A DNA stretch of 35,243 nucleotides. It comes from a virus. Taxonomy: Duplodnaviria; Heunggongvirae; Uroviricota; Caudoviricetes. Positions 33,519 to 33,971 of the stretch are shown one piece after another. The stretch covers positions 1 to 35,243 of IMG/VR virus record IMGVR_UViG_2737471821_000011, one strand, 5' to 3'. The notes under the pieces were generated by a model that did no database searches, was not told the origin of the DNA, and was given only the letters and a program-made list of their open reading frames with translations. A program made the translations under genes and the position numbers. The stretch's first letter is position 1; each line of letters starts with the position of its first letter.

Positions 33519-33776
33519 TTATCTGGTTTGTTTTCGTAATTGTTCGGCACAATAGTCGAGATGTGTTTGCAGATCCCGCATAGACATCTGTGAGCTGGTG
33601 ACGTAGTTAATCAGTGCAGTCAGTTCGGCAAGTGGGCCATCGACATTAAATCCATCCTTATCGAGATCCCGGAGTAATTTCATCAAGTGCGATCCCTCCA
33701 CCAGTGATCTGACGCCTCCCGGCGTGTGAATCCTTTCGGTAAATCCGTCTTCCAGTGGATAGTGATACTGCTGCAT
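33519..33776 (-). CDS. Small protein homologous to the antirepressor C-terminal domain (candidate SOS-induced antirepressor)
   Basis: ATG at 33776 (GGAG RBS). GFTERIHTPGGVRSLVEGSHLMKLLRDLDKDGFNVDGPLAELT...MRDLQTHLDY aligns with the C-terminus of the 32493..33203 protein (GYRSLIHSPSGVLGLTESSLLMNLLNQLQEDGHDVSGAAAELT...LRDIQTHAEY). LexA box 22-40 bp upstream. Confidence 0.6.
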   Translation of the reverse strand: MQQYHYPLEDGFTERIHTPGGVRSLVEGSHLMKLLRDLDKDGFNVDGPLAELTALINYVTSSQMSMRDLQTHLDYCAEQLRKQTR

Positions 33777-33795
33777 CTTATCTTCTCCATGCAAT

Positions 33796-33815
33796 AACTG
33801 TATATTTATACAGTA
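33796..33815. promoter_or_regulatory. LexA box (SOS operator)
   Basis: AACTGTATATTTATACAGTA against the E. coli consensus TACTGTATATATATACAGTA: CTGT-N8-ACAG with an AT-rich spacer; overlaps a -10-like TATAAA. Confidence 0.7.
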
Positions 33816-33843
33816 TCAAATAATTTGTTTGCTATCCAGCACG

Positions 33844-33858
33844 TTTTGTAAATTACCC
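33844..33858. promoter_or_regulatory. Operator-like inverted repeat TTACC-CGAAA-GGTAA
   Basis: Perfect copy in the divergent region between the minus-strand antirepressor operon and the tailspike gene. Confidence 0.6.
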
Positions 33859-33971
33859 GAAAGGTAATATCTATTCGTATTTACAGTCTTTCTATCCATA
33901 TGTGGTTTTTCAGGTAATAGAATAACCAGATATGCGGCGCAACGGGTGCTGCGACTATCTGGAGATTTAAC

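Follow-up and report, generated by a model that had tools for sequence, protein, structure and literature searches.

Whether, and by which route, DNA damage could lift the repression of a prophage whose repressor has no autocleavage domain is the question raised by the 35,243-nucleotide stretch of DNA analysed here (the window). A first-pass annotation had proposed that LexA represses a small antirepressor gene whose product inactivates such a repressor. The window was found to be a phiV10/epsilon15-like (Uetakevirus) E. coli prophage, with an ant region 100% identical to E. coli ETEC1747. Our analysis confirmed that the observation of an SOS box in front of an antirepressor gene is real, since the box goes far beyond chance. 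The core logic, in which the antirepressor would inactivate the non-cleavable repressor, is supported by homology of the two proteins to the Ant-Rep pair of phage SPC32H together with an identically placed LexA box across the genus. Given that the window is a Uetakevirus prophage built of SPC32H-type parts, the locus is another instance of the SPC32H Rep/Ant system, for which both the genetics and the structure have been worked out, and not a new mechanism. What is new is modest: the switch reaches a very common E. coli prophage family, a conserved Ant is combined with a divergent Rep, and a second antirepressor gated by a C4 RNA lies in tandem with the first.

Conservation was judged from two comparisons. 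The region upstream of ant was aligned for eight phages (alignment A1), and a second comparison covered 17 loci, six of them from Citrobacter, Erwinia, Superficieibacter, Pseudocitrobacter and Scandinavium genomes; the fixed offsets of box and operator given below apply to 14 of the 17 loci, from at least nine genera.

A Near-Consensus LexA Box Precedes ant

The elements at the start of ant are as follows.

33519..33776, minus strand: ant, small antirepressor gene, orthologue of SPC32H ant (ATG start, 85 aa)
33785..33788, minus strand: Shine-Dalgarno GGAG of ant, 8 nt 5' of the ATG (read from the sequence)
33796..33815, no strand: LexA (SOS) box AACTGTATATTTATACAGTA, with two mismatches to the E. 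coli LexA consensus TACTGTATATATATACAGTA

The near-consensus SOS box had been reported at about these coordinates, and the report was borne out exactly: both the CTGT and ACAG arms are intact, the centre is entirely A/T, and no other site in the 35-kb window has three or fewer mismatches, where 0.01 would be expected. Scoring by heterology index, which the first-pass annotation had suggested as a check, gave about 1.37 for the box, better than every training site (dinD 2.29, recA 5.07), and 13.8 for the second-best 20-mer of the window, approximate values from a matrix made with 25 E. coli SOS boxes. The 20-mer starts at -39 relative to the ant ATG in 14 of the 17 loci. A chance SOS box was rejected by the expected number of matches, the heterology index and this conserved offset. 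Both ant and the LexA box were present in all loci examined, the box being degenerate in two; in the BUCT711 and Superficieibacter loci the left half-site reads ATGT, not CTGT. Alignment of SPC32N with SPC32H showed an ACAG to AAAG change at the homologous box position, and this change, in the work of Kim & Ryu 2013, reportedly makes Ant constitutive and leaves SPC32N unable to stay lysogenic. A TGCATGGAGA block at the ant Shine-Dalgarno is also kept in the compared loci.

The Putative ant Promoter Runs Into the LexA Box

Only one promoter arrangement, TGGATA and TACTGT separated by 17 bp, is conserved across the loci (alignment A1 and 12 loci), and we infer that it is the ant promoter.

33810..33815, minus strand: putative -10 hexamer TACTGT of the ant promoter, within the LexA box (conservation and 17-bp spacing)
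33833..33838, minus strand: putative -35 hexamer TGGATA, within the conserved block TGCTGGATA (conservation)

The earlier claim that the box overlaps the -10 of ant agrees with this assignment, in that the best conserved -10 candidate falls inside the box, and LexA would span about -12 to +8 of the putative promoter. The generic promoter scan called no ant promoter. Several other arrangements were considered, namely TTTACA beside the operator, TTGATA with TATTGC, and -10 hexamers within the LexA box paired with variable -35 elements; each was discarded for lack of conservation among the loci. The TGCTGGATA block is kept in nearly all compared loci. As TGCTGGATA(G), at 33829-33839, it exceeds the length required of a -35 hexamer and looks like a LexA half-site (CTGGATAG), although the partner CAG is missing.

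Ant and Rep Are Homologues of the SPC32H Pair

The SPC32H Rep/Ant antirepression system was reportedly described by Kim & Ryu in 2013 and Kim et al. in 2016, with structures deposited as PDB 5D50 and 5D4Z. Residues 2-84 of the window Ant matched residues 3-85 of PDB 5D50 chain E ('Anti-repressor protein') with E = 1.4e-46, and a tblastn comparison with the SPC32H ant gene, annotated 'anti-repressor protein', gave 86.7% identity. The PHROG matches of Ant were phrog_450 (E = 7e-48), phrog_15539 and phrog_1760 only, and a Pfam search of Ant returned no credible family.

6615..7199, minus strand: rep, two-HTH repressor without a peptidase domain, 194 aa (PDB and Pfam)

Rep aligned over its full length (residues 1-190) with PDB 5D50 chain A ('Repressor') at E = 4e-42. 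It is 41.8% identical to SPC32H Rep, the N-terminal domain at 54%, the middle domain at 33% and the C-terminal tail at 53%, and 99.5% identical to the phiV10 and ZX5 repressors. The first-pass annotation had seen two HTH motifs and no LexA/CI-type peptidase in this protein and had suggested an HMM search for an S24 domain. On both points the profile search agreed: Pfam assigned HTH_3 to residues 106-147 (E = 1.2e-9) and, less strongly, an HTH-type domain to residues 21-61, and Peptidase_S24 gave no Pfam match in Rep even at E<=1. When E. coli LexA and lambda CI were used as tblastn queries against the whole window, no S24-like match was better than E = 0.5. A hidden S24 domain or another cleavable repressor in the window was ruled out by these Pfam and tblastn results and by the epsilon15 annotation.

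One secondary source states that SPC32H Rep binds DNA as a tetramer and that an Ant tetramer binds two Rep dimers and breaks the Rep tetramer (PMC9638917); a second describes the C-terminal tetramerisation element of Rep as doubling as the Ant-binding element (PMC9986798). Since Rep and Ant of the window are 42 and 87% identical, respectively, to their SPC32H counterparts, binding between the cognate partners is something we only infer. The same figures place a conserved Ant beside a divergent Rep, which suggests that Ant might work across prophages, on repressors of relatives that differ in immunity. In a ZX5 lysogen, mitomycin C yielded 1e9 PFU/mL compared to 1e7 spontaneously (PMC9782041).

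Operator-Type Palindromes Recur Through the Window

A TTACC-N5-GGTAA motif upstream of ant had been placed at about 33844-33858. The motif is there, but it lies nine bases away, at 33853-33867.

33853..33867, no strand: operator-type palindrome TTACCCGAAAGGTAA (motif search and homologous epsilon15 site)
7255-7269 (perfect) and 7303-7317 (one mismatch), no strand: operators in the rep-cro intergenic switch region (motif search)

The window holds 12 copies of the motif against 0.61 expected (about 20-fold), 10 of them perfect and two with one mismatch, starting at 6481, 6543, 7255, 7303, 9586, 9648, 12042, 12060, 15203, 32406, 33473 and 33853. By a reading of the ORF map all 12 are intergenic and mostly near gene starts, and several are paired, 18-62 bp apart. 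In the RefSeq record of epsilon15 this 17-bp motif is marked as 'repressor' binding sites, one of which lies upstream of the ant homologue gp19. Given the copies between rep and cro and the epsilon15 annotation, TTACC-N5-GGTAA is very probably the Rep operator, and the distribution of its copies suggests repression at numerous operon starts instead of a single switch region. The operator at 7303 sits between TTGATT and GAATAT hexamers, a putative promoter, upstream of the cro-like gene at 7354..7584 on the plus strand, which matches phrog_35.

In front of ant, the palindrome starts at -91 from the ATG in the same 14 of 17 loci as the box. Its centre is near -57 of the putative ant promoter, and it is 106 bp upstream of the ATG (33973) of the tailspike gene, which diverges from ant and shares the intergenic region with it. 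In E. coli genomes the tailspikes that adjoin the ant region vary widely, endosialidase and glycosyl hydrolase 28 being two of the types.

Elsewhere, the operator at 32406-32420 lies 60 bp upstream of a gene for a 210-aa protein (31714-32346, minus strand; phrog_1349, E = 3e-113; no Pfam or PADLOC match), which may be a Rep-controlled accessory gene. PADLOC gave no defence-system match for Ant, the BRO-N protein discussed below or this 210-aa neighbour.

An IsrK/C4 Module Lies Between ant and a Second Antirepressor Gene

The first-pass annotation had overlooked that ant and the downstream BRO-N gene are separated by an IsrK-like leader and by a C4 antisense RNA of the P1 type. In 5' to 3' order on the minus strand, the elements are as follows.

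33515..33487, minus strand: predicted promoter TTGAAA-17-TATATT (promoter scan)
33473..33487, no strand: operator between two predicted promoters, kept in phiV10, Tyrion, ZX5 and phiv142-3
33471..33443, minus strand: predicted promoter TTTACA-17-CATAGT (promoter scan)
33360..33436, minus strand: IsrK-like leader RNA with a1/b1 C4 targets (Rfam RF01394, 67.2 bits; gathering score 50)
33252..33335, minus strand: C4-type antisense RNA of the P1/P7 immI type (Rfam RF01695, 66 bits; gathering score 45)
33249-33243, minus strand: b2 target UUGGCGU, exact complement of C4 b'
33222-33215, minus strand: a2 target CUAAGUGG, exact complement of C4 a', running into the BRO-N Shine-Dalgarno
33216-33213, minus strand: GGAG Shine-Dalgarno of the BRO-N gene, overlapped by a2
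32493..33203, minus strand: second antirepressor, 236 aa, BRO-N plus Ant-like C-terminal domain at residues 155-231 (Pfam and PDB)

A rho-independent terminator, 33366-33382 followed by a T run, closes the leader, and the family RF03163 (c4-a1b1), which overlaps the leader, scored 44.3 bits, just below its gathering score of 46.7. In the predicted C4 fold both elements are exposed: a' (CCACUUAG) forms part of a hairpin loop, and b' (ACGCCAA) falls in a junction that is single-stranded. Each of a' (8 nt) and b' (7 nt) has two exact complements, one in the leader (a1/b1) and one downstream (a2/b2). Across five phages these elements covary at all three places, in four combinations:

window: a = CUAAGUGG, b = UUGGCGU
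phiv142-3: a = CUAAGUGG, b = UUGGUCU
phiV10 and ZX5: a = CUAAAAGG, b = UUGGCGU
Tyrion: a = CUACAAAGG, b = UUGGUCU

This three-way covariation is strong evidence for working antisense control, and it implies that the antisense RNAs fall into specificity types, as in P1 and P7. Duplex energies of the whole C4 with its targets were indistinct from those with shuffled targets; this test was replaced by explicit mapping of the a/b complements and their covariation. No icd- or orf45-type leader ORF coupled to the BRO-N gene was evident. A 20-aa ORF with a TTG start (33209-33271, minus strand) ends 5 nt before the BRO-N ATG, at a place where ZX5 has an annotated 37-aa 'ash family' ORF, and it may be a remnant or equivalent of a coupled leader ORF (orf45 or icd).

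The module lies between ant and the BRO-N gene in the window, phiV10, Tyrion, ZX5 and phiv142-3. The IsrK/C4/BRO-N module is absent from SPC32H, epsilon15, BUCT554 and BUCT711; in SPC32H and epsilon15 a convergent gene follows ant directly, and epsilon15 has an annotated terminator there. In the window, the promoter and terminator scan found no terminator between ant and the IsrK/C4/BRO-N unit, so that transcription from the ant promoter might run on and connect them. In TL-2011b (locus L011, 2021-3109) an insertion of about 1.1 kb separates the BRO-N gene from ant.

The BRO-N Protein Carries a Second Ant-Like Domain

The 236-aa protein matched Pfam Bro-N (E = 3.6e-19), and its C-terminus aligned with nearly the whole of SPC32H Ant (5D50_E, E = 1.7e-13). 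That the 85-aa protein is homologous to the C-terminal domain of this BRO-N antirepressor had been seen at the outset, and direct comparison upheld it: the window Ant and residues 155-228 of the BRO-N protein are 43% identical (E = 2e-16), and both match phrog_450. The locus would accordingly hold two antirepressors with one type of Rep-binding domain, one gated by LexA and the other by antisense RNA and Rep.

The BRO-N protein is 85% identical to ORF4 of ZX5. Overexpression of the ZX5 BRO-N protein lowered prophage titres about 1000-fold, and it is the only antirepressor named in that paper (PMC9782041). The phiV10 BRO-N gene (locus L001, 2512-3191) is frameshifted inside the Ant-like domain, most of which is missing, and in phiv142-3 (locus L010, 1288-1944) the same C-terminal domain is joined to another kind of N-terminus, which is AntA-like. 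When the Ant-like C-terminal domain was used as query in a word-indexed protein search, 23 matches came up, mostly short, a sample of the domain architectures.

We tentatively read the locus, at somewhat less than even chances, as one Rep-binding (Ant) domain deployed twice in tandem and differently gated, so that a single non-cleavable repressor could be inactivated in two ways, through SOS or, independently of SOS, through an RNA gate. The first copy would be the free 85-aa protein under LexA, and the second the C-terminus of a modular protein under a Rep operator, the IsrK-like leader and C4, the a/b specificity of the antisense RNA having diverged between phages that are otherwise nearly the same. 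Feed-forward and positive feedback might then come from ant transcripts that run through and from the loss of Rep.

Proposed Induction Mechanism and Alternatives

We consider it highly likely that this locus is the induction switch of a phiV10/epsilon15-like prophage, of the SPC32H Rep/Ant type, in which LexA-gated Ant disables a non-cleavable Rep, a judgement that rests on homology to the solved and genetically tested SPC32H system. The analysis itself established the homology and domain content, how good, unique and conserved the box is, and what the operator motif is; LexA binding, the Ant-Rep interaction and its stoichiometry are carried over from the SPC32H work. In the lysogen, Rep would silence lytic genes from TTACC-N5-GGTAA operators distributed genome-wide; its predicted layout starts with a DNA-binding HTH, continues with another HTH-like domain and ends in a tail for tetramerisation and Ant binding, with no self-cleavage. 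Host LexA, bound to a very strong SOS box, would cover the -10 and start region of ant. Upon DNA damage, active RecA would bring about LexA self-cleavage and ant would be transcribed, whereupon Ant would bind Rep and strip the Rep tetramer from its operators, inducing the prophage. Downstream, C4 most likely blocks the BRO-N ribosome-binding site, and the BRO-N antirepressor would be made only once C4 is outrun or titrated; candidates for this relief are the a1/b1-bearing leader RNA, transcription running on from the ant promoter, and the loss of Rep.

The main inducer could instead be the BRO-N/Ant-domain protein under C4/IsrK and Rep, with LexA-gated Ant accessory or redundant. The fall in prophage titres on overexpression of the ZX5 BRO-N protein, about 1000-fold for a protein 85% identical to that of the window, speaks for this, as do the intact and covarying C4/IsrK apparatus and the contribution of the Gifsy-1 IsrK-AnrP locus to induction (PMC4825925). 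We nevertheless regard it as improbable, given that ant and the LexA box occur in every locus examined, albeit with the box degenerate in two, whereas the module is missing in SPC32H, epsilon15, BUCT554 and BUCT711 and the phiV10 BRO-N gene has lost most of its Ant-like domain to a frameshift. That the SOS box is fortuitous, or regulates the tailspike gene (ATG 33973) rather than ant, is barely credible: the intergenic region is common to both genes, but only 0.01 chance matches are expected, only 20 bp separate the box from the start codon of ant, compared to 158 bp from the tailspike start, it keeps the same offset from ant across genera, and a natural mutation in it separates SPC32N from SPC32H.

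A further proposal, made by the first-pass annotation, adds dual control with positive feedback, with Rep at 33853-33867 also repressing ant so that Ant production would accelerate itself. The spacing from operator to box is fixed, at 52 bp in most loci, despite change in the intervening sequence; a conserved GGTAAT half-site lies at 33913-33918; and, going by the two secondary sources, a Rep tetramer could bridge sites (PMC9638917, PMC9986798). The operator, however, centred near -57, lies outside the core promoter, clear of the -35, the -10 and the start site of the best promoter; Rep at this position could even activate. Since comparable operators precede other rightward operons in epsilon15 and the window, this copy may serve the divergent tailspike promoter. 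On balance we think self-accelerating Ant production through this operator rather unlikely. A Rep-sensitive positive loop is more plausible at the IsrK/C4/BRO-N unit than at the ant promoter, because there the operator at 33473-33487 is flanked by two predicted promoters.

Relation to Known Systems and Significance

The closest system is SPC32H Rep/Ant, which belongs to the same phage genus and shares an orthologous Ant (87%), a full-length orthologous Rep, the position of the LexA box in the ant promoter, the divergent arrangement of ant and tailspike, and the operator motif. It differs in that Rep is only 42% identical, that the host here is E. coli, and that ant is followed here, without a terminator, by the IsrK/C4/BRO-N module, which SPC32H lacks. 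The first-pass annotation had likened the locus to Gifsy-type prophages. The logic is indeed shared, but by direct homology the closest relative is the SPC32H system of the same genus. LexA-controlled antirepressors of Gifsy/Fels-2 and of coliphage 186 (Tum) were reportedly described by Lemire et al. in 2011 and Shearwin et al. in 1998, and the SPC32H papers are said to have found Ant structurally distinct from all of these. The Gifsy-1/Gifsy-3 and Fels-2 antirepressors and 186 Tum follow the same logic as the window Ant, that of a non-cleavable repressor inactivated by a LexA-repressed antirepressor (PMC7380047); the Pfam and PHROG searches of Ant gave no sign of a sequence relationship to them.

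The C4 arrangement of the window matches the P1/P7 immI pattern (c4-icd-ant): C4 with upstream a1/b1 targets, then a2/b2 over the ribosome-binding site, then an antirepressor gene, the RNA elements here lying within 33203-33520. The IsrK-orf45-AnrP locus of Gifsy-1 is a relative of the IsrK/C4 module (PMC4825925). Unlike P1/P7 immI and Gifsy-1, the window has no evident icd/orf45-type ORF, its regulated protein has a domain like SPC32H Ant, and its unit lies directly downstream of a LexA-gated ant. P22 immI (mnt-arc-ant) is similar in having an antirepressor region beside the tailspike gene of a short-tailed temperate phage, but no Mnt or Arc homologues were seen in the window; in P22 the repressor, C2, can be cleaved with RecA, and SOS still induces ant mutants of that phage (PMC7380047).

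The practical value of these results lies in annotation. Of 5,426 complete E. coli genomes, 531 carry the ant region (33440-33975 of the window), and the gene is labelled 'hypothetical protein' in every E. coli genome among the matches listed and in most phiV10-like phage records. A LexA-Ant-Rep switch would explain how these common prophages, including those in ETEC, O157 and K1 strains, respond to DNA-damaging antibiotics, and the tandem C4-gated second antirepressor offers a tidy system for how two induction inputs combine. Apart from the switch, the prophage carries a tRNA-Arg gene (anticodon TCT) at 14804-14880 on the minus strand (ARAGORN; Rfam, 73 bits).
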